A DNA stretch of 24,000 nt, from the NCBI RefSeq assembly GCF_039542465.1, contig NZ_BAABIE010000001.1:372306-396305 (forward strand), given 5' to 3'. Origin of the DNA: Gordonia alkaliphila. GTDB taxonomy: Bacteria; Actinomycetota; Actinomycetes; Mycobacteriales; Mycobacteriaceae. The position numbers and the translations under genes were made by a program. This document shows positions 6,778-23,538 of the stretch, one piece after another; position 1 is the first letter of the stretch; every line of letters begins with the position of its first letter. The notes below the pieces were generated by a model. That model was not told where the DNA came from. It worked only from the letters and a program-made list of their open reading frames with translations, and ran no database searches.

Positions 6778-6780
6778 CCG

Positions 6781-8592: not shown

Positions 8593-8771
8593 GCCTACTC
8601 ACCTCCCCAAGCGAGTCAGCCACACCGATCGATCTGGTGTGCTAACTCCACGTTACGCTGATCTACCAAATAGAACAAGCATTCGAGGAGATTTATTTCA
8701 AAGAATTTCTGAAGGCAGAAGAAGGCCGCTGACCAGGGCTTTCGTCCGCAAGGGCGCGGTGACGCTGCGGG

Positions 8772-10343
8772 TCAGGTCCAGCTGGGCAGCCAGAGCTGCA
8801 TGTTCCACAGGTCGTTGCTGATCGGCACGCCGGTGAGGATTGGCCAGTGGAAGGCGAAGTTGGTCACCACGAGTCCGACGTAGAGCGCCACCCCGAGGAC
8901 GGCGATCAGCCGCGTCGTCGACAATCGATCTCTTCCCGCACTGGAGAGGACGTCCCCGCAAACCAGCGCCAAGCCCATCACCAGGAACGGCGCCATCGCG
9001 GTGGCGTAGAAGAAGTACATCTGGCGGTCGATCGAGAAGAACCAGGGGAGGATGGCGGCGCCGTAGCCGACGAGGACGGCGGCGTAGCGCCAGTCCCGGC
9101 GGAAGATGGTGCGCCACAGCGCCCACACCAGCATGGGCAGGGCCAGCCACCACAGGGCGGGCGTGCCGATGAGCATCTGGGCGCGAATGCAGTCGCCGCC
9201 GCCGCACTGATCGGGGCCGTAGGAGATCGCGTAGAGCATGGGACGCAGCGCCATCGGCCACGTCCACGGCTTGGACTCCCACGGGTGGTGATTGCCCGCG
9301 GCGTTGGTGAGGCCGGAGTGGAACTCGAGGATCCCGGTCTCGTAATACCAGAACGAACGAATCGCGGCCGGCACCCACGAGAAGGTGCCGTCGACGCCCA
9401 CCTCGGTGCCGACCACGTAGCGGTACACCGAGGTCTCCGCGCGGAACCACACCGCGAAGAAGGCGAGGTACATCGTCACCGGCAGCACCGCCAGCGAGGC
9501 CCCCGACGGAACCAGATCGCGCGCCAGGACGCCCTTGTACGGCTTGCGCACGTGGTAGGCCTTGCGAGCGGCCAGGTCGAACCCGAGGGACATCAGGGTG
9601 AAGAAGACGACGAAGTACATGCCCGACCATTTGGTGCCGCAGGCCAGACCCAACATCACGCCGGCGGTGAAGCGGTACCAGCGGAAGCCCAGCCGGGGTC
9701 CGAGCGGGCTCAGGTGCATGCGGCCCTCGACGTAGGCGCGGTGCATGCGGGCGCGCATCTGGTCGCGGTCGGCGATGAGGGCGGCGAAGGCGAGCACCAC
9801 GAAGAGCGCCTGGAAGATGTCGAGCATGCCCATGCGGGACTGCACGAACAGCACGCCGTCGCAGATGGCGAAGATGCCGGCCAGCGCCCCGATCAACGTG
9901 GACCGCGACATCCGGCGCACGGTCAGATAGATCGCCAGGACGATGATGACGCCGGAGACGGCGGCGGTGAATCGCCAGCCCATCGGCCCGTAGCCGAACA
10001 TCGCCTCGCCGATCGCCAGCATCCATTTGCCGACGGGCGGGTGCACCACCAGGCCGTACGCGGGATTGTCCTCGATCCAGCCGCCGCCGGTCAGCGCCTG
10101 CCAGCCCTGCGGCACGTAATGCTTCTCGTCGAAGACGGGCGTGCCGTCGTCGGTCGGATGGGTGAGGTCCCAGAAGCGCGTCACGATCGCGATCAGGGTC
10201 AGCACGACGCCGACGATGAAGCCGCGTCGACGGTCGGTCGCGCCGAAGATCGGCTCGGGAATCTCCGGGCCGGGAGCGGTGCCGAGGTCCTCGGTGCGCG
10301 CGCGGGGTGCGACGGTGGCGCGATCGAGGACGGCTGGACTCAC
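8772..10343 (-). CDS. pmt: Dolichyl/polyprenyl-phosphate-mannose--protein O-mannosyltransferase (Rv1002c-like)
   Basis: 523-aa polytopic membrane protein with a GTG start. Contains FDEKHYVPQGW and HPPVGKW motifs typical of the GT39/PMT family. It is divergent from rsmI, as in M. tuberculosis. Confidence 0.9.
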   Translation of the reverse strand: MSPAVLDRATVAPRARTEDLGTAPGPEIPEPIFGATDRRRGFIVGVVLTLIAIVTRFWDLTHPTDDGTPVFDEKHYVPQGWQALTGGGWIEDNPAYGLVVHPPVGKWMLAIGEAMFGYGPMGWRFTAAVSGVIIVLAIYLTVRRMSRSTLIGALAGIFAICDGVLFVQSRMGMLDIFQALFVVLAFAALIADRDQMRARMHRAYVEGRMHLSPLGPRLGFRWYRFTAGVMLGLACGTKWSGMYFVVFFTLMSLGFDLAARKAYHVRKPYKGVLARDLVPSGASLAVLPVTMYLAFFAVWFRAETSVYRYVVGTEVGVDGTFSWVPAAIRSFWYYETGILEFHSGLTNAAGNHHPWESKPWTWPMALRPMLYAISYGPDQCGGGDCIRAQMLIGTPALWWLALPMLVWALWRTIFRRDWRYAAVLVGYGAAILPWFFSIDRQMYFFYATAMAPFLVMGLALVCGDVLSSAGRDRLSTTRLIAVLGVALYVGLVVTNFAFHWPILTGVPISNDLWNMQLWLPSWT

Positions 10344-10376
10344 CTGGCCGATGGTAGAGGAAGGTAGGTTGGCCAG

Positions 10377-11225
10377 GTGACTGGAGCACTCGTCTTAGCC
10401 GGTACGCCGATGGGACAGCCCGGCGACGCCTCCCCGCGACTGCGGGAGGCCTTGGCGTCCGCGGACATCGTGGCCGCCGAGGACACGCGGCGGGCCCGCG
10501 GCTTGGCGTCGTCGTTGGACGTGACGATCGGCGGAAAGCTGGTCAGCTACTACGACCACGTCGAAGCCCAGCGCGCGCCGCAATTGGTGGAGGCGATCGC
10601 CGACGGCGCCACCGTTCTGCTGATCACCGATGCGGGCATGCCGTCGGTGAGCGACCCCGGTTATCGACTCGTCGCCGCCTGCGCGGCCGCCGACCTGCGC
10701 GTGACCTGTCTGCCCGGCCCGTCCGCGGTGACCACCGCGCTGGCGCTGTCGGCGCTGCCTTCGGAGCGGTTCTGCTTCGACGGCTTCGCTCCGCGCAAGC
10801 CCGGCGCTCGCCACGACTGGCTGGCGTCGCTGCGCACCGAGCCGCGCACCGTGGTCTTCTTCGAATCACCGCACCGGCTGGCCCAGACCTTGGCCGACGC
10901 CGCGCAGGTGCTGGGCGACGACCGGTCGGCGGCGGTGTGCCGCGAACTGACCAAGACCTACGAAGAGGTCAAGCGCGGCGGTCTCGGCGAGCTGGCTCGG
11001 TGGGCCGCCGACGGCGTCAAGGGCGAGATCACGGTGGTCGTCGCCGGCGCTTCGGCGATCGACGACGAAGCGGACCTCGAGTCGGTGGTGGCCGCGGCCG
11101 AGAGGCTGGCCGACGCTGGCAGTCGTCTCAAGGATGCGTGCGAGCAGGCGGCGGCGGGGACGCCGTTCAGTCGCCGCGAGGTCTACGAAGCGGTACTGGC
11201 CGCCCGCCGCGCGGCCGACAACTGA
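10377..11225 (+). CDS. rsmI: 16S rRNA (cytidine1402-2'-O)-methyltransferase RsmI (Rv1003-like)
   Basis: 282-aa ORF with a GTG start after GAGGAAGG. Tetrapyrrole-methylase-fold motifs are present: LAGTPMGQPGD, AAEDTR, ITDAGMPSVSDPG, FFESPHR. Confidence 0.9.
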   Translation: MTGALVLAGTPMGQPGDASPRLREALASADIVAAEDTRRARGLASSLDVTIGGKLVSYYDHVEAQRAPQLVEAIADGATVLLITDAGMPSVSDPGYRLVAACAAADLRVTCLPGPSAVTTALALSALPSERFCFDGFAPRKPGARHDWLASLRTEPRTVVFFESPHRLAQTLADAAQVLGDDRSAAVCRELTKTYEEVKRGGLGELARWAADGVKGEITVVVAGASAIDDEADLESVVAAAERLADAGSRLKDACEQAAAGTPFSRREVYEAVLAARRAADN

Positions 11226-11271
11226 TCGCGCAGTCGTCGGCTCGACTTCCTCGGAACGGATGAAGCCGCGG

Positions 11272-12640
11272 CTAGCCTGGATCTTTCATCGGTGAATTCG
11301 AATCGCCAGGCCTAAAGCATGAAGAAAGGTGCTCTCACCTGCGATAATCGTTCTTGCGACAGCACGATTACGTCAGAGCGAAGGAGCACCTTTCTGGTGA
11401 ACAACTCTACCGTGTTCTATCCACACATCCACGCCACCGGCGACGGCGAGAACCTCGTGTCCCACGCCGGAACTGTCCTGTTGACCCGGACCGTCGAGGC
11501 CAGCAGCCTGGCAGCCGAGGTATCGACCGCACTGGCGCCGTGGCGCACACCGTTGGCGACGCATGATCCGGGCAAGATCATCGCCGACCTCGCCGTCGCG
11601 TTGGTCGCCGGCGGCGACTGTCTCGCCGACATCGCGACCATCCGCGAACGCCCCGATACCTTCGGCCACGTCGCCTCGGACCCGACGGTGTCCCGCCTGA
11701 TCTCCACCCTGGCCAAGTCGCCGATCCAGGCGCTGTCGGCGATCGCCGCCGCGCGAGCGGCGACCCGGGCACGCGTGTGGTCGCTGGCCGGCACCGCCGC
11801 GCCGAACCATGCCATCTCAGCGAAGAAGCCACTGGTCATCGACCTCGACGCGACCCTGGTCACCGCGCACTCCGACAAGCAATCGGCTGCAGGAAATTAC
11901 AAGGGAGGCTACGGATTCCATCCGATGACCGCGTTCATCGACCACGGGCCCGGCGGCGCCGGGGAAGCCGGAACGATCCTGCTACGGCCAGGCAATGCCC
12001 GTGGTCGTGCGGCGAGAGAAACCGCATCCGGGTGCGCAACTGCGGATCACCGACCGCAACGGGTGGCGGCTGACCGCATTCGCTACGAACACCAAGCTCG
12101 GGCAGCTCGCGGATCTGGAACTGCGGCATCGCCGCCGTGCGCGGTGCGAGGATCGGATCCGGCAGAGCAAGGATTGTGGCCTGCTGAATCTGCCGCTGTT
12201 CTCGTTCGCGCAGAACCAGGTATGGACTGCGATCGTCGCGCTGGCATTCGACCTGAACGCGTGGATGCAGATGCTGGCGTTGACCAGCACGAACGCCCGA
12301 ACCTGGGAGTTGAAGACATTGCGTCTGCGGTTGTTCGCGATCGCGGCCAGGATCGCTCGCCACGCCCGTCAACGACGCCTGCGGTTCGATGCCCACGCCA
12401 AGCACACCAGGCTGCTCATCGCTGGGCTTCATCGGCTCGACGCATTCACCAACACCAGCTGACCACCAGTTCCCGCTGGTATCCGAACGACCTGAAAGAC
12501 ACCCTCCGGGCCCGTGAAACCCGGCCGCGATCCGGCGGCATCCGGCCAGCCTGTCGTACCCGACCTGCATAATCTGCTCCGCCGCAATCAATCCGAACCG
12601 CTCAGGCCGGGAGAAAACCACGACGAAAGATTGAGGCTAG
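11272..12640 (+). mobile_element. IS1380-family insertion sequence, internally deleted
   Basis: Terminal inverted repeats CTAGCCTGGATCTTTCATCG (11272-11291) and the reverse complement of 12621-12640 (CTAGCCTCAATCTTTCGTCG) match at 17 of 20 positions. They enclose the split transposase. The element is about 1.37 kb, shorter than typical IS1380 members. Confidence 0.8.
11397..12462 (+). pseudogene. IS1380-family transposase, broken by an out-of-frame internal deletion near 11997-12003
   Basis: The N-terminal part runs from the GTG at 11397 (after AAGGAG): VNNSTVFYPHIHATGDGENLVSHAG...ILLRPGNA. The C-terminal part is in another frame (track ORF 11995..12462): PVVVRREKPHPGAQLRITD...LELRHRRRARCEDRIRQSKD. 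About 100+ central codons expected between GNA and the RREKPHPGAQL block are missing. Confidence 0.8.
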
Positions 12641-12858
12641 GAGAACGTGTGGCCTGAGAATATGGCGAAACTTCCCCGTCGCATTTGTCGAATCATCTCC
12701 GTGGGTGTCCAATATGCCTCGGGGGAAGAATCCTCCCACTATCGGCAACTCGAAGCCGAGACCACTCCACAGGGAGTATCGGCAGGGTTGGGGGAAGCGT
12801 TACATCGGGGGATTGTGGTCCTTCGGTGTCCGCATGGACTACAAGGGGGCTCGTCTCG

Positions 12859-13539
12859 ATGAGGCGTATCACCAGACTTCTACTGCTCACCGTTCTCGCT
12901 GCGTTCACGTTGGCGGGATCATTGCTCGCCGGACCGGCGGACGCGAAGACCCATCACACGCGTGAAGGCGTCGACATCACGCTGACCGCCTCGAAGCTCA
13001 AGGCGAAGAAGATTCCGGCACTGGACGCCTCGCCGCTGTCGGGCGAAGCGCTGCTGTCCTCGGACGTGCACGCAGCACTCAAGGGCATCGACGGCAAGAC
13101 CGTCCGTGCAACGGTCGAGGTCGGCTACAAGATCGGCTACCCGGTCTCGGTCGCGCCCTCGGGCGTGAATGTCGCCGCACACACGCCCGAGCTGAAGCTG
13201 ACCGGCGGCCTCAACGCCAAGGTCGCACCCGAGGTCACCATCTCCGGCAGCGGCGGCGGCGCCAAGCTCGGCGAGATCGGCGCAGAGCTCGGTGCCGAAG
13301 CGACCGTTATCCCGGCCGCGGACCTCGAGTTCGAGGTCGGCGCGGGCAAGATCACCACCGTCACACTCGCCGACATCGCGCTGACCCAGCCCGTCGCCGA
13401 CATCGTCCTGTCCGGTGTCGAGCTGAACGTGTCCAACGCTCTCGGACCGATCTCGGTGCGACCGTTCGCCAAGATTAGCGTCACGACTGATACCGGTGTG
13501 TACGTGTACTACGACCACGGCCCCAACAGCCGCATCTGA
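12859..13539 (+). CDS. MspA-family mycomembrane porin (copy 1), Sec signal peptide
   Basis: Track ORF 12685..13539, trimmed to the ATG at 12859 after AAGGGGG. Signal peptide MRRITRLLLLTVLAAFTLAGSLLAGPADA|K. Blocks TVEVGYKIGYPVSV, VAPEVTISGSGGG and ISVRPFAKISVTTDTGVYVYY align to M. smegmatis MspA blocks LELGYQIGFPWSL, PGVSISADLGNG and LLRPFARLIASTGDSVTTY. Confidence 0.75.
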   Translation: MRRITRLLLLTVLAAFTLAGSLLAGPADAKTHHTREGVDITLTASKLKAKKIPALDASPLSGEALLSSDVHAALKGIDGKTVRATVEVGYKIGYPVSVAPSGVNVAAHTPELKLTGGLNAKVAPEVTISGSGGGAKLGEIGAELGAEATVIPAADLEFEVGAGKITTVTLADIALTQPVADIVLSGVELNVSNALGPISVRPFAKISVTTDTGVYVYYDHGPNSRI

Positions 13540-13553
13540 GTAGGGGATCCGCG

Positions 13554-14714
13554 ATGTATGTACATTTCGATCGTGCTAGAAGAGAGCACGGACTACTAGT
13601 TGGTGCGCTCGCAGGAATCGCGACGATGACTGTCGCCTTCATACTTGTGCTTACGCTCGCCCCATCGCCGGCGTCGGCTGAAACACCTGCCCAACGTTGC
13701 AAACGGGAGACAGCGGCATATAACGCGGGGTGGGCGGCTATAGGAAGGAAGCCACCTGCTCCGTACAAATGTGGCGGCAGCAATAAACCGCCACCCACCC
13801 TATCTCCAGCCGAACCTGGCGACCATGGCGAAGAAACTGAGGAAAAATCGCCCCCTGAAAAGGGAACGCCAGACGGCGCCGACACCGGTCGTAGTGGAGG
13901 CCCAAGCCTCAAACCGCCCACCGAGCGCAACGACAATGCCAGCGGCGTCGACCCAAATCAGCCGAGCGTAGCACCTTCTCCCGGAATGAACCGGCCCGAA
14001 AGGCGAGAAGTTCAAGCGTGTACTCAATACCGTTTCGACACGGGGCGTTGTCTCCCCTTTAACTCTCCCGCCAAGCATGCTGCCGACCGGGTGATCGCTA
14101 CGATCACGCAAGCGATTCGCCAGGGCTACGAAATCCAGGTTCGGCGTTACATCGATCGTACAAGAGCTGTGTGGCCATCGTCCCGCCTTGCCGAGATTGA
14201 GGCCGCTGTCGTACGGGCAAGGGCCGCGCGTGACCTCGGTGTCACTGGCCAGTATGATGGATCGGTCAAAAGCCGCAATAGGTGGGTCTATGATCAGCTT
14301 CACGATGTTGGCTACTGCAACAACTCGGGGAATTGTAGTCTGGAGTTCAAGCTTCGAGTCAATTACGAAATCTACCTGAATGTTGCTACTAAGAAGCCGG
14401 AGGCGCTACTTCGCGGACAGATATCACGCCCAGACGGGGGACAGTTCCGCATCACGAATCATCAATGCGTGGTAATGAAAGACGACCTATTCGATAACGC
14501 GGTCGGGCGCTATAATGAGTGTGGAATCACGGAATACAAAACTTCTAGCTACCAAATACTCGACGGATCGTCGACCACTATGACGCGGGGGAAGTTTCAC
14601 TACTTCCAGGCGACTGTTTTTATCGCTGCGCCAGAGCAGGCAGTAGGGCCGCAACCGGCACCGCGATCACCTCGATGGTTCACCGCAGACAACGGTGATC
14701 AGTGGTTCTACTAG
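13554..14714 (+). CDS. Secreted polymorphic-toxin-like protein 1: conserved N-terminal module, Pro-rich linker, unique Cys-rich C-terminal domain of unknown fold
   Basis: 386-aa ORF starting 14 nt after the porin stop, with SD AGGGGA. Signal peptide ...LAPSPASA|ETPAQRCKRETAAYN. Residues about 43-135 are shared with the 20364 product (ETPAxRCKRETAAYN, PYxCGG, GPSLxPxTERNxxAxGVD). The C-terminal 250 aa or so are unrelated to the paralog and markedly lower in G+C. Confidence 0.7.
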   Translation: MYVHFDRARREHGLLVGALAGIATMTVAFILVLTLAPSPASAETPAQRCKRETAAYNAGWAAIGRKPPAPYKCGGSNKPPPTLSPAEPGDHGEETEEKSPPEKGTPDGADTGRSGGPSLKPPTERNDNASGVDPNQPSVAPSPGMNRPERREVQACTQYRFDTGRCLPFNSPAKHAADRVIATITQAIRQGYEIQVRRYIDRTRAVWPSSRLAEIEAAVVRARAARDLGVTGQYDGSVKSRNRWVYDQLHDVGYCNNSGNCSLEFKLRVNYEIYLNVATKKPEALLRGQISRPDGGQFRITNHQCVVMKDDLFDNAVGRYNECGITEYKTSSYQILDGSSTTMTRGKFHYFQATVFIAAPEQAVGPQPAPRSPRWFTADNGDQWFY

Positions 14715-14734
14715 ATTAACTAGGAGAGTTAACC

Positions 14735-15016
14735 GTGGGATTAGTGCCTAGCGATGATGAGCTACGGACGCTTGAGCGAAGGGGCCTTCTATCGGCGGTG
14801 CTCTTTTACGCCGAAAACTTCGGGGCGGTTAGCTCTACCGTTCTTGATGCAAGTAGCCGAGTCGAGGCGGTTGAGAAACTGAAGGAAATGTATGGCTTCA
14901 GCGTTGAACAGGCGGATCTAATTCTCGCCACGCAGTTGCAAACGATTCTTCCCGATCGGATCTCGGCAATCAGAGAGGAGCTGGAGTGGATTGATTTAAA
15001 TTTGAATCGACCGTAA
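14735..15016 (+). CDS. Small cytoplasmic protein, candidate cognate immunity/partner of toxin-like protein 1
   Basis: 93-aa ORF with a GTG start 8 nt after AGGAGAG and 20 nt after the upstream stop. It has no signal peptide and low G+C like the upstream C-terminal domain. It contains the helix motif FSVEQADLILATQLQTILPDRISAIREEL. Confidence 0.6.
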   Translation: MGLVPSDDELRTLERRGLLSAVLFYAENFGAVSSTVLDASSRVEAVEKLKEMYGFSVEQADLILATQLQTILPDRISAIREELEWIDLNLNRP

Positions 15017-15039
15017 ATGGAAATTCCACTATGTGTGGA

Positions 15040-15339
15040 TTCCGGCGGTGGGGCGCCAATGGTTGGTGCGGGGACCTCAACGAGCGGGGCATCGTGGTTC
15101 GGTTGCTGACCGAGGGCTGGGCTCGGGCACCTACACCGGACAGATGATGATCGGCATCCTGTTGCTGGTGGCCGAGTGCGAGGTGTCCCTCAAGGCTGAG
15201 CGTGCTGAGGCCAAGCGGGAGTTGATCCGCAAGCGGCGATTCGCCGGGCGCAGGTCAACGGCGAGACGGTGGCGGGGTTGGCCAGGGTCGCGGGGTATCG
15301 CGACCGACGATCTATCGGATGCTGGAGGGTCAGAAATGA
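15040..15339 (+). pseudogene. Serine recombinase (resolvase/invertase) C-terminal remnant with several frameshifts
   Basis: Resolvase-like pieces read across three frames. They are DLNERGIVVRLLTEG (from 15073), TGQMMIGILLLVAECEVSLKAER, PQAAIRRAQVNGETVAGLARVAG and VSRPTIYRMLEGQK* (stop 15337-15339). The N-terminal catalytic Ser region is absent. Confidence 0.6.
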
Positions 15340-15416
15340 ATGCATCGAATGCCCGCGATGGCCGACCAGATGGATGCGGTGGGGGTGAGTGATCCGTCCC
15401 GGTGTTTCCGGAGAGT

Positions 15417-15560
15417 TCACCTTGTGAGTGCCCCCTCCGGATTGGGGGTGGCAATCCGATCGTAGTGGAGTCGCTCGGCGTGGTCGGGGGTGAGGTCGTG
15501 GCAGTAGCTGGTCGTTGCCGGTTGTAGAACACGACCCACTCGGCGGTGGCCAGGGAAAGT
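15417..15560 (-). pseudogene. IS3/rve-type transposase C-terminal remnant, cut by the ISL3 insertion
   Basis: The minus strand reads LATAEWVVFYNRQRP. After a 1-nt frame change it continues SYCHDLTPDHAERLHYDRIATPNPEGALTR* (stop complement 15417-15419). This is typical of the end of an integrase-core transposase (W..YN..RPH..L...TP). It abuts the ISL3 inverted repeat at 15561. Confidence 0.5.
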
Positions 15561-17013
15561 GGCTCTTCGTTTTTCAGAGTGCGTTGACCCTTTCGGCGAG
15601 CTGACCGGAGTGCAGTAGGGACCGCAAGATGTAGTGGTCGAGGTTGCGGAAGCCTTGGGCGATGCCGCGGAGGTGTTCGAGGCGTCCGTTGATGGCTTCG
15701 ACGGGTCCGTTGGAGACGCCGGTGTCGAAGTAGGCCAGGATGTCGGCGCGCCTGTTCCACAGGCTTCGTCCGAGTTGGGCCAGCTCTTGCAGGCCTGTCG
15801 GCAGTCCGGTGCGGATCCGGTGCAGGACCTTGTACATGAGTTTCTTCCCCTCGCGGCGCTGCGGGTGTTCGTAGGCGGCGATCAGCTGCTGGTAGATCTG
15901 GTGGGTGATCTCGACAGCGACATGGTCGTCGTGACTGGTCAGTGACTCGAATAGGCGGATCTTCTGCTTGTCGGTGAGGAGTTCGGTGCGGGTATGCAGG
16001 ATCCGGCGGATCTTGTAGAGCGGGTCGTCTTTGCGCCCCCGGTGCCCGCATACTTGTTGCTGGATCCGTTGCCGGCACTGGTCGAGTTTGCTCGCGGCCA
16101 GGTGTACGACGTGGAACGGGTCCATCACGACCCGGGCGTCGGGGAGTTCTTCGGTGGTGGCGCTCTTGTAGCCGGTGAATCCGTCCATCGCCACGACCTT
16201 GATCCGATCCCGGAACCGTTGGTCTCGGGCGGCCATCCACTGTTTGAGGACGTGTTTGGATCGTCCGCCGATCATGTCGAGCAGGCGTGCGGGGCCGGTC
16301 CCGTCGATGACCGGGGTCAGATCGATCAGGACGGTGACGAAACTCGGGTCTCCTTGTCCGCGAACATGTTTCCATTTGTGTTCGTCCACGCCGAGGCAGC
16401 GGACACCGTCGAGGTGGTCGCCGTTGTAGACCAGGGTGCGAGCGGCCTCTGTGGCGATGGTATTGACCGTTCTCCAGGCGATGCCGAGGTTGGCAGCCAC
16501 GGCGGCCACGCTCATCTTGTCGACCACGATGCGCTGCAGAATCCAGCGCTGCGTCCTGGTCGTGACCACTGCTCGCGCCCTGGCGATGTGGTCGATCCTC
16601 GCGCGGAAGACCGACCTGGAGCAGTCGCTGGTGTGGCACACGTACCGCGGAACCGCCACGTGCAGGAGGACTGGATGGCCGGCGGCAGGAGTGTCGGTCA
16701 GGATCCGTGCGACCCGATCGCGTGGTTGACCTGCAATGTTGCAGTTCGGGCATCGTCGATCGGGGTCGAGGACCTCGCAGAAAAATATGGGTCCGGTCGT
16801 CGGCGCCGACGGCCGCGCCGGTGATCGTGACGCCCAACTCGACGGTTCGGCAGATCGTGTCGGCAACATCGGAAGTAAGCTCAGTCATGGGTCCTGTGGT
16901 GTGCGTCGAGGGTGTGTAGGAACTTCCATGATCACACCCAGGGCCCGCCTACATGTTGTGGTCGCCCACGCTCGTCCCGAACCTCACCTATGCACTCTCA
17001 GATACGAAGAGAT
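15561..17013 (-). mobile_element. ISL3-family insertion sequence, copy 1 (full length)
   Basis: The end at 15561 starts GGCTCTTCGTTTTTCAGAGTGCG. The reverse complement of 16991-17013 reads ATCTCTTCGTATCTGAGAGTGCA, matching 17 of 21 in the core. The right boundary is approximate (17011-17013). No target duplication was seen. Confidence 0.8.
15574..16888 (-). pseudogene. ISL3-family transposase, split by a 1-nt frameshift in an A5/T5 run (16781-16785)
   Basis: The N-terminus MTELTSDVADTICRTVELGVTITGAAVGADDRTHIF (ATG at 16888) continues in another frame as CEVLDPDRRCPNCN...VPRYVCHTSDCSRSVF. The remainder is the 431-aa track ORF 15574..16869 (MDGFTGYKSA..., FDTGVSNGPVEAINGRLEHLRG). Confidence 0.8.
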
Positions 17014-17231
17014 TCCCTAACAGTTGTCAACACCATTGTGAACCGGGACTTGACCTCGCAGCCCTCGGTGCGCCAGTCGACGCCCGAGCCGGCGTGGACC
17101 TGCTCGGCGGTGAGGTCACCCGCGTCGACGGCGTCGACCCAGATACCGACGAGACGGCCGTTCGAGTGACAGGACTCGCAAGATGCCCAGGCCCTGGGGA
17201 CGTTCACGGATGCTGGGTTCGTAGGAGTCAT
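16998..17231 (-). pseudogene. ArdA-like antirestriction protein, N-terminal fragment truncated by ISL3
   Basis: From the Met at 17231: MTPTNPASVNVPRAWASCESCHSNGRLVGIWVDAVDAGDL. This follows the ArdA N-terminal pattern (Tn916 ArdA ..VYIANLGKYNEGELVGAWF..). The last 5 codons or so and the stop come from the ISL3 end. Confidence 0.35.
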
Positions 17232-17398
17232 GGTTGGTCCTGTCTTTCCACCGCAGGGCTGCCGTCTGTCGTTGGGGCCAGGGTTCAGCGACGCAGCGTC
17301 CATCGGTTCTCGCCACGAGCGCTTCGGAGGAGTCTCTGCCGGCGGCGGTGCCGCCGGTGCTCAAAGTGGCGATTGCCCGCTTGCGTAGGGTTCTGGCC

Positions 17399-18127
17399 AT
17401 GGACGAAGGGCTGTGGCGCGAGCACCTGAAGGCGTACCGGAGACGAATGCTGTGGGCCCCTCTGGGCCTGAGCGCGTTGGGCTGTGCCTTCATCGCCGTC
17501 TCGGCCTACGACACCGACTGGGAGTTCAGCTTCCTCGGATTCGCGACCGGCGCGCTCCTCCTGGTAGTCGCGCTCACCCCGGTGACGGTCCGACTGCTCC
17601 CCATCGGCCAGCCAAGGGTCGAGAGGACCGAGACAACGCTGTCGCTCGTAGCCTCTCCACGAGGCCGTGTCGCGATTATCACAATTCCGATCGCGGTGGC
17701 GATGGCCGTCGCCGCCTTCGCGGCACTGACGCTGGACCACTGGCGGAAGCCGTTGATCGGGATCGTCGGGATACCGCTGGCCATCGTTCTGGCACTCGTC
17801 TCATTCGCGGAGTCGCGGTATGAGGTAACCGACAGGTGCTTCGCCCATGTCGTCGACTACGGCGGGCTGGTGTGGGTCCGCGAAGTAGATCGACCAACGA
17901 TTGCCTGGCTCGATTCCCGTTTGATCCTCTACCTGGCAGGCGATGTCACGGTGACCCGCCGCACTCGCGGCAGCAGCACCAGCCGGTCGAAGGAAGGCAG
18001 CGTCCTGTTCAGACTCAGCCCCCTGCCCGATCGGTTGGCCACCGAGTTCGCCGCCGAGGTCGTGCGGCGAACCGGCATCGAGATCAGCTACGGCGTGATG
18101 CCGACCGAGATGTGGGATATGCGATAG
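17399..18127 (+). CDS. Membrane protein of unknown function (about 4 TM helices plus a soluble C-terminal domain)
   Basis: Track ORF 17234..18127, trimmed to MDEGLWREHL at 17399. Coding-like GC3 and hydrophobic segments. No family recognised. Confidence 0.55.
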   Translation: MDEGLWREHLKAYRRRMLWAPLGLSALGCAFIAVSAYDTDWEFSFLGFATGALLLVVALTPVTVRLLPIGQPRVERTETTLSLVASPRGRVAIITIPIAVAMAVAAFAALTLDHWRKPLIGIVGIPLAIVLALVSFAESRYEVTDRCFAHVVDYGGLVWVREVDRPTIAWLDSRLILYLAGDVTVTRRTRGSSTSRSKEGSVLFRLSPLPDRLATEFAAEVVRRTGIEISYGVMPTEMWDMR

Positions 18128-18135
18128 AGCCCAGG

Positions 18136-18270
18136 TTAGACTTCGTCTGAGACGGTGACGCCTACCAGGCGAGCACACCTCGATGGCACCGAACCAGATC
18201 CCGAGGAGACGGCTGTTGCGGGCTGAGGCGCTCGCAGGCTATCGCAAGCGTTCACGGTGATGGTTGTCAT
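18136..18270 (-). pseudogene. Second decayed ArdA-like 5' segment (also readable as a 44-aa ORF)
   Basis: Positions 18179-18218 align with 17124-17163 at 31 of 40 nt by hand alignment. In the alternative frame this segment encodes NSRLLGIWFGAIE, compared with NGRLVGIWVDAVD in the 17231 fragment. An in-frame stop lies upstream in that frame. The 44-aa ORF with ATG at 18270 follows AAAGGA. Confidence 0.3.
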
Positions 18271-18280
18271 GGCGGTCCTT

Positions 18281-18661
18281 TCAGACGGGAAGCAGGTCAG
18301 CGATGCGGTCAATGTCGATGACGCTCTCGGGATCGGGATCGCTGGGCCCCAGGAAGCGCTGCTCGACGTCGAGGCCAAGCAATCCCCGGCCGGCAGCGAA
18401 AGAGACTTCCTGGTCAAGTCCGAGGTTGCGGCCGTAGGCCGGATCGAGGCCGAGAATCGTGTACAAAGCTCGTGCTGCGCCGAAGACGGGATCGGCGCAG
18501 ATGGTGATCTCCGCCCAGCCGGCCCAGCGCTCGAAGCCGTACTTATCGCCGCCGCACGGGCCGGGAACATAGACAACTCGGTCGGCGCCCTCGGCGCGAG
18601 CAGCCTCGGCCGCGTCGATGCGCCAGATGACTGGCCAATGGCGTTGGAATATCTCGGCCAT
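18281..18661 (-). CDS. Hypothetical protein (126 aa)
   Basis: Track ORF 18281..18784, trimmed to MAEIFQRHWPV at 18661. It starts 11 nt after the upstream stop and has GC3-rich codons. No recognisable domain. Confidence 0.5.
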   Translation of the reverse strand: MAEIFQRHWPVIWRIDAAEAARAEGADRVVYVPGPCGGDKYGFERWAGWAEITICADPVFGAARALYTILGLDPAYGRNLGLDQEVSFAAGRGLLGLDVEQRFLGPSDPDPESVIDIDRIADLLPV

Positions 18662-18672
18662 CTCGGTTATTC

Positions 18673-19038
18673 TCACGGCAGCGCCTCCAATAGCGGCTCG
18701 ACGGCGAGAACCTCGCCGGTAGTCAGTCGGTGCTCCTCGATCGCCGCTTCGATCTGGCAAGGATTGGCCAGGTGCGACCAGCACCGCGGACCGGCCACGC
18801 CGTCGGTGAGGACGATGCGGGTTCCGTCGGTCAGGTCGATGCCGACCATCGACAGGGCCGCTCGGGCAGCGTCCTGGGCCATGCCGGGCGAGTACAGATA
18901 ATCCGGGTCAGCCGGGGCCAGGTCGTGGACCCGATTGTACCGGCGGGCGACGTCGGCACGGTCCAGAGTTCTGGCCCGGTCCGGGACGAGGCCGCGGTGG
19001 ACCAGACGTGCGACCCAAGGGTCGGTGATGGCGGTCAT
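18673..19038 (-). CDS. Hypothetical protein (121 aa)
   Basis: Track ORF with ATG preceded by GAGG, 4 nt after the upstream stop. No recognisable domain. Confidence 0.5.
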   Translation of the reverse strand: MTAITDPWVARLVHRGLVPDRARTLDRADVARRYNRVHDLAPADPDYLYSPGMAQDAARAALSMVGIDLTDGTRIVLTDGVAGPRCWSHLANPCQIEAAIEEHRLTTGEVLAVEPLLEALP

Positions 19039-19042
19039 CGCC

Positions 19043-19300
19043 TCAGCCCTCCGCGTTCGCGGTCAGGCCGACGAGGTGCGGGTATTCGGCTGGCGCGGTG
19101 AGGATCTCGACCTCGTAGATTGCATGAACCTCTGCGTACTGCGGGCCCTCGCCGGTTAACGGGATGAGGGCGCCCTGTGCCCAGTCATCGAGGTCGTGAG
19201 TGGGTGGTGGCGACACCTCGACACCGATGGTGTGGGTGAACACAGCGCCGGTGGCGTAGGAGTTCTCGGTGCGGATGGTGAGCGGGATGGTTGCCGGCAA
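19043..19300 (-). CDS. Hypothetical protein (85 aa), first gene of the small operon
   Basis: Track ORF 19043..19420, trimmed to the in-frame TTG at 19300, 6 nt downstream of a strong AAGGAGG. The upstream part of the track ORF is Arg/Pro-rich and non-coding-like. Confidence 0.45.
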   Translation of the reverse strand: MPATIPLTIRTENSYATGAVFTHTIGVEVSPPPTHDLDDWAQGALIPLTGEGPQYAEVHAIYEVEILTAPAEYPHLVGLTANAEG

Positions 19301-19521
19301 TCTGGGCCTCCTTGATCGAGTCGAGGAAGGTTTGGCGGCGGCTATGCCGCCGGTGCTTCTTGTCTGTGTTCGAGGTCGCGCCGACCTACAAACCCAGCCG
19401 CGAACCCGGGCCCCTGGCACCAGAAGGCGGGCCGCGAGCGCAGCACCGAACCCATGTCAGGCAAGCACCTACCGGACCCGCACAGCGAATCCGAGTCTCG
19501 GCATTTCCCAAGGTCACCACT

Positions 19522-19544
19522 CCGGAAAATTCCGGACCGGAATC
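19522..19544. repeat. CCGGAAaaTTCCGG inverted repeat followed by the 13-nt CCGGACCGGAATC, repeated at 22847-22859
   Basis: Read directly from the sequence. The exact 13-mer occurs at 19532-19544 (about 125 bp upstream of porin 2) and at 22847-22859 (37 bp after the lipoprotein stop). Confidence 0.5.
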
Positions 19545-19667
19545 GTATTTCTTGCTTCTACCTGCAAGTTCGCAAATGCTCTCCAGTACTGGCTGGCCAA
19601 CCGGTTTTAGCGTTCTCGCGGGCTCTCAGTCGGGGGCTCACACACGAACACAACGAAACTCGGAGTG

Positions 19668-20348
19668 ATGATGAGACGAGGTTTCACCCTTCTGCTCGCC
19701 CTGTTGGGCGCGCTATCGATGACCACACTGCTGGCCGGCGGTCCCGCGGAGGCCAAGACGTACAAGACCCGCGAAGGGTTAACGATCGCCCTGACCGCGG
19801 CCCAGCAGTCGGCGCGCGCGGTCCCGCCGCTGGACTCCTCGCCGCTGTCGGGGCAAGCGCTGTTGTCCTCAAATGTGCACGCCAGGATCGGGAACATCGA
19901 CAACAAGATCGTGCGCGCCACGCTCGAGGTCGGCTACAAGATCGGCTATGCGGTATCGGTCGCTCCCGACGGAGTGAAGGTCACCGCCCACACCCCCGAG
20001 TTGAAGCTCACCGGCGGGGTCAACGCCAAGGTCGCCCCGGAAGTCACCATCTCCGGTTCAGGAGGCGGCGCGAAGCTCGGCGACCTCGGAGCCCAAGCGG
20101 GCGTGGAAGCGAATGTGATTCCGTCAGCGGACCTGGAGTTCGAGGTCGGGGCCGGCAAGATCACCACCGTCACCCTGGCCGAGATCGCGTTGACCCAGCC
20201 CGTAGCCGACATCGTCCTGTCCGACGTGGAGCTCAATGCTACCAACGCGCTCGGCCCGATCAGCGTGCGTCCATTCGCTAAAATCTCGGTCACCACCGAT
20301 ACCGGCGTGTACGTGTACTACGCCCACGGCCAGACCAGCCGTCTGTAG
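19668..20348 (+). CDS. MspA-family mycomembrane porin (copy 2), Sec signal peptide
   Basis: The track ORF starts at GTG 19665, with ATGs at 19668 and 19671 after GGAG. Signal peptide ...LLAGGPAEA|K. It is colinear and highly similar to the 12859 product, including TLEVGYKIGYAVSV, VAPEVTISGSGGGAKLG and ISVRPFAKISVTTDTGVYVYY. Confidence 0.75.
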   Translation: MMRRGFTLLLALLGALSMTTLLAGGPAEAKTYKTREGLTIALTAAQQSARAVPPLDSSPLSGQALLSSNVHARIGNIDNKIVRATLEVGYKIGYAVSVAPDGVKVTAHTPELKLTGGVNAKVAPEVTISGSGGGAKLGDLGAQAGVEANVIPSADLEFEVGAGKITTVTLAEIALTQPVADIVLSDVELNATNALGPISVRPFAKISVTTDTGVYVYYAHGQTSRL

Positions 20349-20363
20349 GCGGGGGCTTCACGG

Positions 20364-21533
20364 ATGATAGACAGGAAGATCGATAACAACCGACCGGCGC
20401 GGAAGCGGGCATCCAGCGGGATGGGCGCAAGCGTTGCCGCCCTCGCTGTATCCCTCGTGATGGCGTCATCGCTGCTGTCGGCAAATGCGTCGGCCGAAAC
20501 GCCGGCGGAGCGTTGCAAGAGGGAGACTGCCGCGTACAACTCCGCATGGGCGACGTCTTGGGTGAGAGCTCATCCCGGAACGAAACCGGCTGATGCACCG
20601 CCTCCGCCGGTGCCCTACAGGTGCGGCGGGGGCGGCGGGGGCGGCGGCCAGCCTCCCACGTTTAGCCCGGACGAGCCAGCGCCCCCGAGCTCGACGGCAA
20701 CACCGCCCCCTTCTACCTCCGCTGAGCCGGCAGACGGCAGCAGTGGGCCTTCGCTCCACCCGTCGACAGAGCGCAACGAGCCAGCCAACGGTGTCGACCA
20801 GGACCAGAGTCCTGTCGGGGGCGGGGAAAGAGAAGAGTATCCAGATATTCCCGACGACGAACTCCGGAAGCTGATCAACATATCGGTAAGGAACTTCAAT
20901 ACCTCAATCAGGAAGCTACGTAGCGATCTTCAGACGTTCGCCCGCCAGATGTCCCTTCCCTACTCTGAGGTCCTCTCCAGTGCCGAGCGGAATGCTTTTG
21001 ACGCCGTACAGGTAAGTAATCCCAGCGCCGATTCGACGTGTGGGAAACCTGCGAACCAACCAGTCGGTCAAGCTAGAGGAGAAGGTGACTTCTTCTACTC
21101 GGACTCCTGCTTGGGAGGCTACAACCATGGCCACAATGGGATATTCACCTCCCCGTCAGCTACTATGGAAGCGAGCGACGATCAAGGGGTCCACGACGTT
21201 GAAAACGCGGCCGCTTCCATGCGAGTGAATCCGCAAAAGTACTATGTCAAGTCTGAGAACGCGACGAACCACCAGAAGCACCTAGCGGCAGAATACGCTC
21301 TATCTAAAGACGGTAAGGGGTACAATTCGGCGGGCTTCGCGAACAACAGGAAGGGTGGCCCCGATGTGGGGCATTTCAACTGTTCCCAGTTGGTGTGGGC
21401 AGCCTACTATGAGACTTCGAGAATCGACCTCGATAAGGACTCATATGGATCATGGCTCGGCCGGAACGTGTCCCCCAATCCCGGGGTGTATCCGAAGGAC
21501 CTCACCGGGTCTCCGCTAGTTGTGGCGTACTGA
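20364..21533 (+). CDS. Secreted polymorphic-toxin-like protein 2: conserved N-terminal module, Pro/Gly-rich linker, C-terminal YiiX/YaeF (peptidase C92) permuted papain-like amidase domain
   Basis: 389-aa ORF starting 15 nt after the porin stop. Signal peptide ...SANASA|ETPAERCKRETAAYN. C-terminal motifs GDFFYSD, HGHNGIF and GHFNCSQLVWAAYYE compare with E. coli YiiX GDIIF, YSHTGML and QYCSEVVWKVY. His precedes Cys, which is the circularly permuted order. Confidence 0.7.
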   Translation: MIDRKIDNNRPARKRASSGMGASVAALAVSLVMASSLLSANASAETPAERCKRETAAYNSAWATSWVRAHPGTKPADAPPPPVPYRCGGGGGGGGQPPTFSPDEPAPPSSTATPPPSTSAEPADGSSGPSLHPSTERNEPANGVDQDQSPVGGGEREEYPDIPDDELRKLINISVRNFNTSIRKLRSDLQTFARQMSLPYSEVLSSAERNAFDAVQVSNPSADSTCGKPANQPVGQARGEGDFFYSDSCLGGYNHGHNGIFTSPSATMEASDDQGVHDVENAAASMRVNPQKYYVKSENATNHQKHLAAEYALSKDGKGYNSAGFANNRKGGPDVGHFNCSQLVWAAYYETSRIDLDKDSYGSWLGRNVSPNPGVYPKDLTGSPLVVAY

Positions 21534-22810
21534 TGCGTTTTTGCCGAAGGAGGGGGCGGGGGTCGCCCGTCCGTCTGGTTGTCGGTATCGCGGTGTCGCT
21601 TATGGTGGCCGTCACAGTGTCGTGTTCGGACGACGCTCTGCCGGAGACATCAGTTCTGGGGCCCGAAGTCGATCGAATCCCTGAGCGGGCGTACGCCGCA
21701 GTGATGGTTGCGCCACCGATGTTCGAGTTCTCGTATAACACCGTTCAGGACAATTCCTGGGTGGTCTTCGTCGATCGAGATATGACACCCCTGGGGTACA
21801 TGCACCAGAAGGGGATGTTTCGAAGTCAGATCGCACGGTATCGCGACGGAATCGTCTTTGCGGACCACGAGAGATATTTCGTGACCTCCAAAGCCGGTAC
21901 ACGCGTCGAACCCCACGACGCAGGCGGGATGTCACTGCGTGCGTCAACACCGTACGACCTTCAAACGGAAGGCGCTTTCTTATGGCTTGACGACGGTGTA
22001 GTGGACGGCCAGTATCGAACTACCGCGATCTCGGTATCGTCGGCCGGCTCAGTTTCGATCCGCAAGATCGACGGACGGATCGTTTCTTTCGGCAGATGCA
22101 CCGGTATCCCCTATGCCGTTTTCTTCCGCAGTTTCGGGAGCGCCGGGTCGGACAAGGTCCACGAACTAGTTGAGATCGACATGTCCAAGAACCGACCTGA
22201 TATCCCGAAAGCCCGAGGAATCTTCGACTTCAAGGGCTCCGGTGGCGGGATGCCCTATTCGTGCGACAGTTCAGGACGGGTCTCGACGTACATGTCGGAT
22301 GGCTACGGGGTTTCCGAAGGCCGGCCGATCAAGTCCGGGTTCTGGACGGCGAGCGTCGATGATGGCCGCGCCGAGTGGTCCCCCGTCCCGCGCGAACAGG
22401 CCGAGCGTTCTGCGGAACACGGCGGATTACATACTCAATACCAGGCACCCTTCGGGGCGAAGATCTCATGGCCCAGCCATGACGGCATCCGGTACGTCGA
22501 TACCGACGGACAAGTGTCGGAGATCAGGTTCGGTCAGGATTTTGCCAGCTATTTATTCGCCATCGCTCCGGACATTCAGGATCGTAGGGTCCACGCGATA
22601 GCGGTCGGTTCCGGATCGAACAGTATCGCCTATCTGGAGCGCGTCGAATCGGACGGCTTCATCCTCCTGGGTGACGGCGAGTTTGTTTTCACGGACCTCA
22701 ACTCTCGTGAAGAGAACCGCCGAATACCGACCCCAGAGTGGTTAGCGAACCTTGTCGCATCGGACCCCTTCACGGTCAGCGATATCGCGCTACTGGACGA
22801 TCTCATGTAA
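21533..22810 (+). CDS. Putative exported lipoprotein (425 aa), candidate cognate immunity/partner of toxin-like protein 2
   Basis: Track ORF 21452..22810, trimmed to the ATG at 21533, which overlaps the upstream TGA (TGATG, translational coupling). The N-terminus MRFCRRRGRGSPVRLVVGIAVSLMVAVTVSC has a lipobox-like VSC. The rest is beta-rich with no recognised family and has lower G+C than the core genes. Confidence 0.6.
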   Translation: MRFCRRRGRGSPVRLVVGIAVSLMVAVTVSCSDDALPETSVLGPEVDRIPERAYAAVMVAPPMFEFSYNTVQDNSWVVFVDRDMTPLGYMHQKGMFRSQIARYRDGIVFADHERYFVTSKAGTRVEPHDAGGMSLRASTPYDLQTEGAFLWLDDGVVDGQYRTTAISVSSAGSVSIRKIDGRIVSFGRCTGIPYAVFFRSFGSAGSDKVHELVEIDMSKNRPDIPKARGIFDFKGSGGGMPYSCDSSGRVSTYMSDGYGVSEGRPIKSGFWTASVDDGRAEWSPVPREQAERSAEHGGLHTQYQAPFGAKISWPSHDGIRYVDTDGQVSEIRFGQDFASYLFAIAPDIQDRRVHAIAVGSGSNSIAYLERVESDGFILLGDGEFVFTDLNSREENRRIPTPEWLANLVASDPFTVSDIALLDDLM

Positions 22811-22891: not shown

Positions 22892-23538
22892 GGCTCTTCG
22901 TTTTTCAGAGTGCGTTGACCCTTTCGGCGAGCTGACCGGAGTGGAGTAGGGACCGCAAGATGTAGTGGTCGAGGTTGCGGAAGCCTTGGGCGATTCCGCG
23001 GAGGTGTTCGAGGCGTCCGTTGATGGCTTCGACGGGTCCGTTGGAGACGCCGGTGTCGAAGTAGGCCAGGATGTCGGCGCGCCGGTTCCATAGGCTTCGT
23101 CCGAGTTGGGCCAGCTCGGCCAGTCCGGCGGGTAGTCCGGTGCGGATACGGCGCAGGATCTTGTACATGAGTTTCTTGCCCTCGCGGCGGTGTCGGTGTT
23201 CGTAGGCGGCGATCAGCTGTTGGTAGATCTGGTGGGTGATCTCGACAGCGACATGGTCGTCGTGACTGGTCAGTGACTCGAACAGGCGGATCTTCTGCTT
23301 GTCGGTGAGGAGTTCGGTGCGGGTATGCAGGATCCGGCGGATCTTGTAGAGCGGGTCGTCTTTGCGCCCCCGGTGCCCGCATACCTGCTGCTGGACCCGT
23401 TGCCGGCACTGGTCGAGTTTGCTCGCGGCCAGGTGTACGACGTGGAACGGATCCATCACCACCCGAGCGGCGGGGAGTTCTTCGGTGGTAGCGCTCTTGT
23501 AGCCGGTGAATCCGTCCATCGCCACGACCTTGATCCGA
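22892..23538 (-). mobile_element. ISL3-family insertion sequence, copy 2, truncated by another IS
   Basis: It begins with the same GGCTCTTCGTTTTTCAGAGTGCG end as copy 1 and stays colinear with 15561-16207 of copy 1 with scattered substitutions. Homology stops abruptly after ...CTTGATCCGA (23538). Confidence 0.8.
22905..23538 (-). pseudogene. ISL3 transposase, C-terminal half only
   Basis: Track ORF 22905..23525 (MAMDGFTGYKSATTEEL...LHSGQLAERVNAL) is nearly identical to the C-terminal half of the copy 1 transposase. The N-terminal half is missing. Confidence 0.8.

Follow-up and report, generated by a model that had tools for sequence, protein, structure and literature searches.

A candidate porin-coupled polymorphic toxin-like cassette in Gordonia alkaliphila with a GyrA C-gate homologue as putative immunity protein

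In Gordonia alkaliphila, a gene for an MspA-family porin (mspA1) is followed by a gene for a modular exoprotein (exo1) and a gene for a small cytoplasmic protein of 93 amino acids (aa), and the question raised by this locus is what such a combination would do. The trio, here called cassette 1, lies on contig NZ_BAABIE010000001.1 within a stretch of 24,000 nucleotides (positions 372,306 to 396,305 of the forward strand), referred to below as the window. Cassette 1 is read here, with a probability of about 0.5, as a porin-coupled polymorphic toxin-like cassette in which a gyrase-fragment decoy would serve as the immunity protein. The gyrase-decoy part specifically is more doubtful and is put forward tentatively. 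The fullest form of the proposal, in which MspA porins are partners of Sec-exported polymorphic toxins and one of these is a non-enzymatic poison of the GyrA C-gate with target-derived decoy immunity, is slightly less likely again.

The three genes share one strand and are separated by 14 nt (mspA1/exo1) and 20 nt (exo1/93-aa gene), and a purine-rich stretch resembling a Shine-Dalgarno (SD) sequence stands 5′ of every start (aagggggctcgtctcgATG, aggggatccgcgATG and aggagagttaaccGTG), in agreement with an earlier sequence-only reading of the window. The MspA1 product is counted from the ATG picked in that reading, the 93-aa gene has a GTG start, and all three products matched NCBI entries residue for residue (Table 1). 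The G+C content was 65.1% for the entire window and 65.6% for mspA1, followed by 59.3, 54.8 and 51.4% across exo1 and the 93-aa gene, the last two values being those of the C-terminal part of exo1 and of the 93-aa gene. A figure of about 49% had been claimed for the C-terminal domain of exo1 and has to be revised upwards, as even the lowest 400-nt window within that part had 52%. The third product was correctly described as small, low in G+C and lacking a signal peptide, and no hydrophobic segment was found in it. Rfam gave no RNA family in the window, a promoter scan gave one promoter-like site, equal to chance expectation, and a terminator scan gave none on the + strand within cassette 1.

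The relation between the C-terminal domain (CT) of exo1 and the 93-aa protein is documented by their homologues. When 1.84 billion representative proteins were scanned in full with HMMER, nine CT homologues were returned (E 9.4e-31 to 8e-4); the domain had been taken for unique, which is true within the window only. All nine are stand-alone Sec-type proteins lacking the porin-linked N-terminal module described below, and those with a complete N-terminus are 264-301 aa long and carry their own signal peptides and the same six Cys. In eight of the nine contexts a homologue of the 93-aa protein (81-105 aa, without signal peptide) adjoins the CT homologue, six of these small genes being co-directional with it and two convergent. 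The exception is P0015, the most divergent CT relative. Pairwise identity among the CTs co-varies (Mantel r=0.69, p=0.001, 8 pairs) with that among the small proteins, which are 17-45% identical to one another. Judged by sequence, the 93-aa gene is the true cognate partner of the exo1 CT, and the two together appear to be an older two-gene module that is present outside Gordonia too. A metagenome scan for the CT found no locus, and a word-indexed protein search with the CT alignment found a single protein. In two of the clusters with a stand-alone CT (L032, 2-742, and L035, 780-1505), a homologous secreted protein of ~240 aa without a Pfam family is encoded directly upstream, so that these clusters are three-gene units as well, with a different first gene.

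The nature of the partner emerged from profile comparisons. Alone, the 93-aa sequence gave only weak ParC matches in the PDB (E about 0.75). A profile of five family members matched GyrA at 3.3e-15 over 79 of 92 positions, ParC at 2.6e-10 and the GyrA14 fragment that was crystallised with CcdB (1x75_A) at 6e-8. Pfam DNA_topoisoIV matched four of the five members (best 5e-7), and the NCBIfam gyrA model matched the relatives at 5e-12 to 2e-7 and the window protein at 0.003, over model positions ~365-445 of 800. When a hidden Markov model (HMM) was built without the window sequence, it recovered the window protein at 1.5e-13 and a segment of S. aureus GyrA at 2.4e-19. A single-sequence model of the 93-aa protein had four helices, with a predicted local distance difference test score (pLDDT) of 73.6, and 49 of its top 50 Foldseek matches in the PDB were GyrA or ParC, at template-modelling (TM) scores of 0.42-0.59 and with weak E-values. 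The first single-sequence matches, to designed helical repeats and CRASP-2, were set aside as helical noise once the profile had given GyrA.

In M. tuberculosis GyrA the C-gate is delimited as residues 401-444 and the helix bundle as 356-400 and 445-490 (PMC2923608). The span matched by the family is the entire C-gate, which is the primary dimer interface, together with stubs of two long helices; positions 29-89 of the family profile correspond to E. coli GyrA 418-485, inside GyrA14 (363-494). A complete breakage-reunion domain with the catalytic Tyr was not found, the similarity covering ~80 residues, at model positions ~367-438 of 800, with 14-45 bits against cutoffs of 877-902. On these alignments the 93-aa family is a copy of the GyrA C-gate that exists as a protein of its own, a natural counterpart of the laboratory fragment GyrA14. 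No report of a GyrA-fragment immunity protein was found in the literature.

Since the partner copies a single, defined surface of GyrA, it is simplest to suppose that the CT would bind this same surface and that the partner would be a decoy. The 93-aa protein might instead act on the gyrase of its own producer, pairing with the GyrA C-gate and modulating or protecting it without binding the CT at all, and its linkage to the CT would then reflect co-regulation or target protection. A heterodimer is conceivable, as the protein covers the primary GyrA dimer interface, and proteins that protect gyrase are known, e.g. the pentapeptide-repeat proteins. We nevertheless regard this as quite improbable: the family members are highly divergent (17-45%), their co-variation with the CT fits a CT-specific binder better than a binder of a conserved enzyme, and protection of gyrase against the CT would still imply that the CT attacks gyrase.

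The decoy reading gains its wider frame from the exoprotein, which is assembled from parts that recur across the genus. The N-terminal module was aligned for the two exoproteins of the window (exo1 and its paralogue exo2) and eight database relatives, and later for 22 sequences. In the family plan a hydrophobic leader closes with A-x-A; the mature N-terminus behind it is invariant (ETPAERCKRETAAYN-AW...PPxPYKCGG) and includes two Cys that never vary, and next come 40-60 residues rich in Pro, Thr, Ser and Glu and a junction motif of the form GPS-N-PTER(R/N)...Q(P/A)(S/T)(V/I), beyond which the sequences are unrelated. The invariant columns of the head are E43, T44, R48, C49, R51, E52, Y56, W60, P67, P70 and C73, and the head may be a disulfide-stapled hairpin. 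Exo1 and exo2 are 41% identical over their first ~140 aa (E=2e-18); the similarity stops after the junction motif (residues 116-139 in exo1) and the remainder is unrelated. The leader, the invariant ASA/ETPA junction and this identity bear out the earlier description of the second protein as Sec-secreted, with an N-terminal module common to a paralogue.

Behind this constant region, the CTs belong to many unrelated types that differ between loci. The gene downstream of the exoprotein mostly codes for a lipoprotein or a small membrane protein, and a cytoplasmic partner was found in a minority (L008, L017/L019 and cassette 1). Where the CT type recurs, so does the partner: exo2 and a G. effusa locus (L023) have CTs of 39% and partners of 27% identity, and two further loci (L003 and L044) have exoproteins 42% identical over the whole length and lipoprotein partners 33% identical (E=2e-21). 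A conserved N-terminal region with a sharp junction and unrelated, interchangeable CTs is thus found together with an adjacent downstream partner that changes with the CT (the eight pairs above, exo2/L023 and L003/L044) and with orphan modules, namely the 93-aa gene in strains with the deletion described below and a gene of Gordonia sp. MP11Mi. The latter is a partner-like gene (L009, 8233-8724) that is 30% identical to the partner in L012 (7086-7568) and lies ~1.3 kb downstream of a different exoprotein, with no matching CT beside it. The exoprotein loci are, as far as sequence goes, laid out like polymorphic toxin-immunity loci, and cassette 1 appears to be one copy of a three-gene module family of Gordonia. 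A polymorphic-toxin-like architecture had been proposed on first sight of the window; it is upheld by the conserved N-module, the sharp junction, the swapped CTs and partners, the several copies per genome, the low-G+C CT and the flanking insertion sequences (IS).

The plasmid collection held no match to the N-module or to the cassette 1 CT, and proteins of 54 aa that clustered with exo1 in the protein collection were unrelated to it, the clustering being an artefact. A gene for a protein O-mannosyltransferase (PMT) is located at 8772-10343 (-), 2.5 kb upstream of cassette 1. The Pro/Thr/Ser-rich linkers of the exoproteins could be O-mannosylated, and the proximity of the PMT gene may equally be conserved rsmI-pmt synteny.

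The orphan state of the 93-aa gene was seen in natural deletions. The identical junction, CTACTGCTC joined directly to CTCGATGG, is present in a second genome of G. alkaliphila and in six metagenome contigs of different samples, in place of a segment that takes mspA1 after codon 10 and exo1 except for its last 45 nt (Table 1). As the first ten mspA1 codons and the last 45 nt of exo1 remain, these sequences derive from a formerly complete cassette by deletion, and they have kept the 93-aa gene and its SD at 97-100% DNA identity. One might therefore ask whether the third open reading frame (ORF), or the entire cassette, is a chance ORF or part of a decaying pseudogene cluster between IS elements; IS remnants on both sides, the loss of the cassette in other strains and the degenerate state of three related loci (L004, L006 and L024) would be in line with this. 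We consider it extremely improbable. The three ORFs are intact and have SD-like sites, the 93-aa protein is one of a conserved family (1.5e-13), its gene has kept 98-100% DNA identity in eight independent sequences, and the CT gives a confident model.

As to the porin, the MspA1 product matched Pfam MspA (PF09203) with E=1.7e-28 (100.2 bits, cutoff 22.9) over model positions 1-167 of 179, and its N-terminus resembles a signal peptide by eye (MRRITRLLLLTVLAAFTLAGSLLAGPADA followed by K), so that the description of the first gene as coding for an MspA-like channel with a signal peptide stands. The score against NCBIfam PorinMspAMycb (NF053716) was 34.7 bits against a cutoff of 280; by these scores MspA1 is a member of the MspA family and not the mycobacterial MspA equivalog. 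MspA1 and the second porin of the window, MspA2, are 78% identical. With the exoprotein N-terminal module as query and one genome per species, 24 genomic loci were found, spread over about a dozen species of Gordonia and a single Nocardia, and one complete genome (Gordonia sp. MP11Mi) has as many as four of them. MspA homology was present directly upstream and on the same strand in 19 of the 20 loci with sufficient upstream sequence, as full-length copies in 15, most of them 60-91% identical to MspA1, and as fragments only in four; in the remaining locus no MspA homology was detected. The porin-exoprotein arrangement is not due to chance, because it recurs in 19 of 20 related loci. A metagenome locus on a capuchin-associated contig (L044) repeated the trio of MspA, exoprotein and partner. 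Another MspA-exoprotein pair was observed in Gordonia humi (P0021, P0022 and P0023), where one assembly has the pair annotated as a single fusion of 621 aa, probably owing to a frameshift or sequencing error.

Taken together, the cassette may be pictured to work as follows. The CT would be antibacterial and bind GyrA in the region of the C-gate, and the 93-aa protein, as a decoy, would trap the CT in the cytoplasm and so shield the producer as well as its kin. The exoprotein's head and its long, disordered linker would dock in or thread through the MspA-like channel, which the linker is in principle long enough to span, and the docking or threading would display or release the CT at the cell surface, from where it could possibly enter a neighbour via the neighbour's own porin. 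That the porin exports the exoprotein is suggested by gene order alone. The constriction of M. smegmatis MspA is too narrow for a folded domain. A folded β-sandwich could thus not pass it; either the CT would need to cross before it folds, or the porin would need to form around a linker already in place. As the CT is Sec-exported and the partner cytoplasmic, the two can meet only in a cytoplasm, either that of the producer before export or that of a recipient after entry.

A number of observations weigh against this picture. The MspA census is one-sided, since the scan started from the exoprotein. In three loci of one uncultured Gordonia metagenome-assembled genome (MAG; L008, L018 and L020), the exoprotein genes look intact and the adjacent MspA is fragmentary or undetected; these exoproteins may use an MspA encoded elsewhere, unless the finding is an assembly artefact. 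It is accordingly conceivable that only the CT and the small protein form a pair, whether of toxin and immunity protein or of binder and inhibitor, and that MspA is a mere neighbour, i.e. a general porin serving as recombination anchor and promoter, with export by Sec followed by unspecific release. Such a role would fit with the MAG, with the narrow constriction, with MspA copies that are 80-90% identical between species compared with about 45-55% for the exoprotein N-modules, with a G+C content that falls exactly at the start of exo1, and with stand-alone CT homologues that have no MspA neighbour. It would leave unexplained the near-universal synteny with gaps of 4-15 nt, a dedicated N-module that all family members have and that is found only beside MspA genes, and the occurrence of several MspA-exoprotein pairs per genome instead of one porin with scattered exoproteins. 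We therefore hold it to be unlikely.

The remaining points on the same side concern the CT itself. An AlphaFold2 model from the family alignment was of good quality (pLDDT 87.1, predicted TM score 0.79). The sequence-only reading had suggested a Foldseek comparison of such a model, and against the PDB and BFVD (viral models) this returned no toxin or enzyme, the best matches being generic β-sandwiches of the PDIP38/ApaG and Ig/FN3-like kinds at TM about 0.3; no CcdB/MazF fold was among the matches. The PDB sequence search with the exo1 CT also gave no match, and the CT is not recognisable as a toxin domain by Pfam, NCBIfam, the PDB or fold search. Pfam, NCBIfam and PADLOC gave no usable match for exo1, its 22 relatives, eight CT homologues and ten partners, the sole hits being Peptidase_C92 at E=0.018 (exo2) and two isolated weak NCBIfam matches. 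In Pfam and NCBIfam the N-terminal module of exo1 and its 22 relatives matched no family, none of the other 22 exoprotein CTs matched a known toxin family at E<0.01, and no partner matched a known immunity family. The CT family is almost devoid of invariant polar residues, with only Cys, some Gly and D174 conserved. As conserved residues of a catalytic type are lacking, any activity would need stoichiometric binding in the manner of CcdB and could not be enzymatic, and a CcdB-like binding of gyrase by the CT may be envisaged. The six Cys (156, 166, 255, 261, 305 and 323), all conserved in the CT family, agree with the earlier description of the domain as Cys-rich, which stood where the accompanying figures for G+C and uniqueness did not; they suggest an extracellular protein and are a poor fit with a cytoplasmic target. 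No recognisable membrane-translocation domain was found in exo1. Finally, as the small proteins are only 17-45% identical, they may track their own CT rather than mimic GyrA.

These features invite an explanation without toxicity, in which the exoproteins would be porin-tethered surface proteins for adhesion or for the capture or degradation of substrates beside the channel, resembling SusC/SusD, with variable domains under phage or niche selection, and the products of the downstream genes would be accessory, for example chaperones, regulators or proteins that hold back premature activity. The β-sandwich indeed resembles binding modules (ApaG/DUF525, CBM4, Ig/FN3-like) and no toxin, the six conserved Cys are typical of stable extracellular proteins, the CT homologues are ordinary stand-alone secreted proteins, the CT of exo2 is hydrolase-like, and a known toxin or immunity family was found nowhere in the exoprotein family. 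Even so, CT-specific partners that change with the CT are a hallmark of toxin-immunity pairs, a cytoplasmic partner of a Sec-exported protein has no obvious accessory role, a GyrA-derived partner is hard to square with an adhesin, and the partner is kept after loss of the exoprotein and exists as orphan genes elsewhere. On balance the non-toxic explanation is judged unlikely, and the porin-coupled toxin-like cassette is preferred.

Among known systems, the MafA-MafB-MafI proteins of Neisseria, reportedly Sec-dependent polymorphic toxins and said to have been treated as such by Jamet et al. in 2015, share with cassette 1 the order of a gene for an envelope or outer-membrane protein, a Sec toxin whose CT varies behind a conserved N-terminal domain and an immunity gene, and share with the Gordonia loci the occurrence of several copies per genome and of orphan modules. 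They differ in that MafA is a lipoprotein, whereas the first gene of cassette 1 codes for an MspA-family channel, in that Maf has DUF1020, whereas the N-module of exo1 is a 33-aa, probably Cys-stapled head with a Pro-rich linker and no Pfam family, and in that the Gordonia host has a mycolic-acid outer membrane. By analogy, the layout of cassette 1 seems closer to MafA-MafB-MafI than to CdiB-CdiA-CdiI of contact-dependent growth inhibition (CDI). With the latter, cassette 1 has in common the sequence of a channel gene, a polymorphic exoprotein gene and a small cognate partner gene, and a further CdiA-like trait is that CT and partner are swapped as a unit behind a conserved junction motif. The cdiB-cdiA-cdiI likeness noted in the sequence-only reading thus extends to gene order and stops short of membership: in Pfam the mspA1 product matched MspA only and not Omp85/TpsB with POTRA, and exo1 and its 22 relatives had no two-partner secretion (TPS) domain, filamentous haemagglutinin (FHA) repeats or VENN motif. 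In nuclease colicins a disordered N-terminal region passes through the lumen of OmpF, and barnase is held by a tight cytoplasmic inhibitor, barstar, encoded by the next gene. The combination of a Sec-exported CT with a cytoplasmic partner would by analogy have the same topology as barnase-barstar, the nuclease colicins and CdiA-CT/CdiI.

The CpnT-IFT pair of M. tuberculosis, which had also been named as a parallel, resembles cassette 1 in that the host is a mycolate bacterium, the toxin is mycomembrane-associated with its toxic domain at the C-terminus, and the immunity factor is cytoplasmic. According to PMC12635105, the channel-forming N-terminal domain of CpnT is part of the same polypeptide and export is ESX-dependent, whereas the channel of cassette 1 is encoded by a separate MspA-family gene and exo1 has a Sec-type signal peptide. 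In Pfam, exo1 had neither an N-terminal channel domain like that of CpnT nor a TNT domain, and the parallel does not hold at the level of domains. A closer comparison for the partner is CcdB-GyrA14/CcdA, as CcdB is a small binder of the GyrA dimerisation region and the 93-aa family aligns to that very fragment. In contrast to CcdB, the exo1 CT has no CcdB/MazF fold and is secreted, and unlike CcdA, an unfolded antitoxin, the candidate neutraliser in cassette 1 resembles the target. Cpe1 and StbD-CT are interbacterial protease toxins that cleave GyrB/ParE (PMC12136450; bioRxiv 10.64898/2026.05.07.723447). They match the reading favoured here in being delivered antibacterial toxins that target type II topoisomerases and have a cognate immunity protein to neutralise them, and differ from cassette 1 in being cysteine peptidases that act on B subunits and are delivered by a type VI secretion system or by CDI. 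Descriptions of their immunity proteins do not present these as fragments of the target, and the word "mimic" does not occur in the StbD paper.

From its sequence, cassette 1 would vary the theme of polymorphic toxin and immunity protein in two ways that have no precedent, in that an MspA-type porin is the conserved genetic partner and the small partner protein stems from the exit gate of GyrA. The literature searches turned up no polymorphic exoprotein or toxin linked to MspA, and the earlier remark that an MspA-type porin is undescribed as dedicated toxin partner can be maintained. If the fullest form of the proposal is true, no porin-coupled polymorphic toxin system would have been known in mycolate bacteria before, nor any decoy immunity protein made from a target fragment, and copying a fragment of the target would be a possible new route to immunity. 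The polymorphic toxins of Corynebacteriales are barely explored outside the ESX/WXG100 systems. It has long been asked how proteins get across the mycolic-acid outer membrane, and an MspA channel with a dedicated N-module would be a concrete pair for this question. Having a free-standing GyrA C-gate as partner, the CT may also be a new protein inhibitor of a validated drug target, acting at a site, the gyrase exit gate, that current drugs do not use. The natural deletion strains with only the 93-aa gene are ready material for competition work.

Table 1. Positions of cassette 1, its parts and related features in the window.
Feature	Position	Strand	Basis or remark
mspA1, MspA-family porin gene, 226 aa	12859..13539	+	ORF listing; Pfam PF09203; WP_345312203.1 'MspA family porin [Gordonia alkaliphila]'
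Predicted Sec signal peptide of MspA1, 29 aa, ...GPADA/KTHH	12859..12945	+	Read by eye
exo1, modular exoprotein gene, 386 aa	13554..14714	+	ORF listing; GAA4739126.1, GCM10023217_03620, annotated hypothetical
exo1 signal peptide, residues 1-42, ...PSPASA/ETPA	13554..13679	+	A-x-A/ETPAERC junction invariant in 10- and 22-sequence alignments; predicted cleavage
exo1 conserved N-terminal head, residues 43-75, ETPAQRCKRETAAYNAGWAAIGRKPPAPYKCGG	13680..13778	+	Two invariant Cys (C49, C73)
exo1 Pro/Ser/Thr/Glu-rich linker (76-115) and junction motif GPSLKPPTERNDNASGVDPNQPSV (116-139)	13779..13970	+	13 of 64 residues Pro
exo1 CT, residues 152-386, three helices and β-sandwich	14007..14711	+	HMMER, alignment, AlphaFold2 model
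Gene for 93-aa cytoplasmic protein, GCM10023217_03630	14735..15016	+	ORF listing; GyrA C-gate homologue plus adjoining helix stubs; candidate immunity protein/decoy
1781-bp segment absent in other strains	12889..14669		Identical junction in second G. alkaliphila genome and six metagenome contigs
mspA2, second MspA-family porin gene	19665..20348	+	Pfam MspA 6.3e-30; 78% identical to MspA1
exo2, paralogous exoprotein gene, same N-module, other CT	20364..21533	+	Full-length G. effusa homologue, 39% identity
Cassette 2 partner, 425-aa predicted lipoprotein, lipobox VTVSC	21533..22810	+	ATG overlaps exo2 stop by 1 nt
ISL3-family transposase gene, 3′ side of cassette 1	15574..16869	-	Pfam DDE_Tnp_ISL3 5.1e-57
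Degenerate IS1380-type (DDE_Tnp_1_4) remnant, 5′ side of cassette 1	11319..12572	+	Pfam 5.7e-36, first half of model; split ORFs
Truncated ISL3 transposase copy, 3′ side of cassette 2	22905..23525	-	Pfam 1.2e-44, profile positions 59-239

The second trio of the window, cassette 2, comprises mspA2, exo2 and a lipoprotein gene, and a homologue of the lipoprotein (27% over 427 aa) follows the exo2 homologue of G. effusa. The exo2 CT has a conserved His (GHNGIF) before a conserved Cys (NCSQ[LV]VWAA; NCSQLVWAA in exo2), an order that suggests a permuted papain-like hydrolase. The Pfam match to Peptidase_C92 had an E-value of merely 0.018 and the CT profile gave no match to PDB sequences, for which reason the label "amidase" is kept as a lead only. 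An aerolysin/ETX-like nature had likewise been suspected for the Ser/Thr-rich CTs of the family; a PDB sequence search with their profile gave no match, and this too is kept as a lead.

The truncated ISL3 copy beside cassette 2 is ~94-95% identical to the ISL3 element beside cassette 1. When the window was compared with the second G. alkaliphila genome (L046), positions 19513-24000 were 99.93% identical and the flank 6118-17055 about 95-97%, which suggests a recent exchange or sweep of cassette 2 between strains. The intervening 2.46 kb (17056-19512) are absent from that genome and contain an ORF for a multi-pass membrane protein of 297 aa (17234-18127) and several ORFs without a Pfam or PADLOC match. 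Elsewhere in the window, a protein of the AurF-type N-oxygenase/di-iron family (E=2.5e-102; 1236-2336, -) and a DUF222 protein of the kind that often carries an HNH nuclease motif (6781-8592, -) are encoded, and both appear unrelated to the cassettes.

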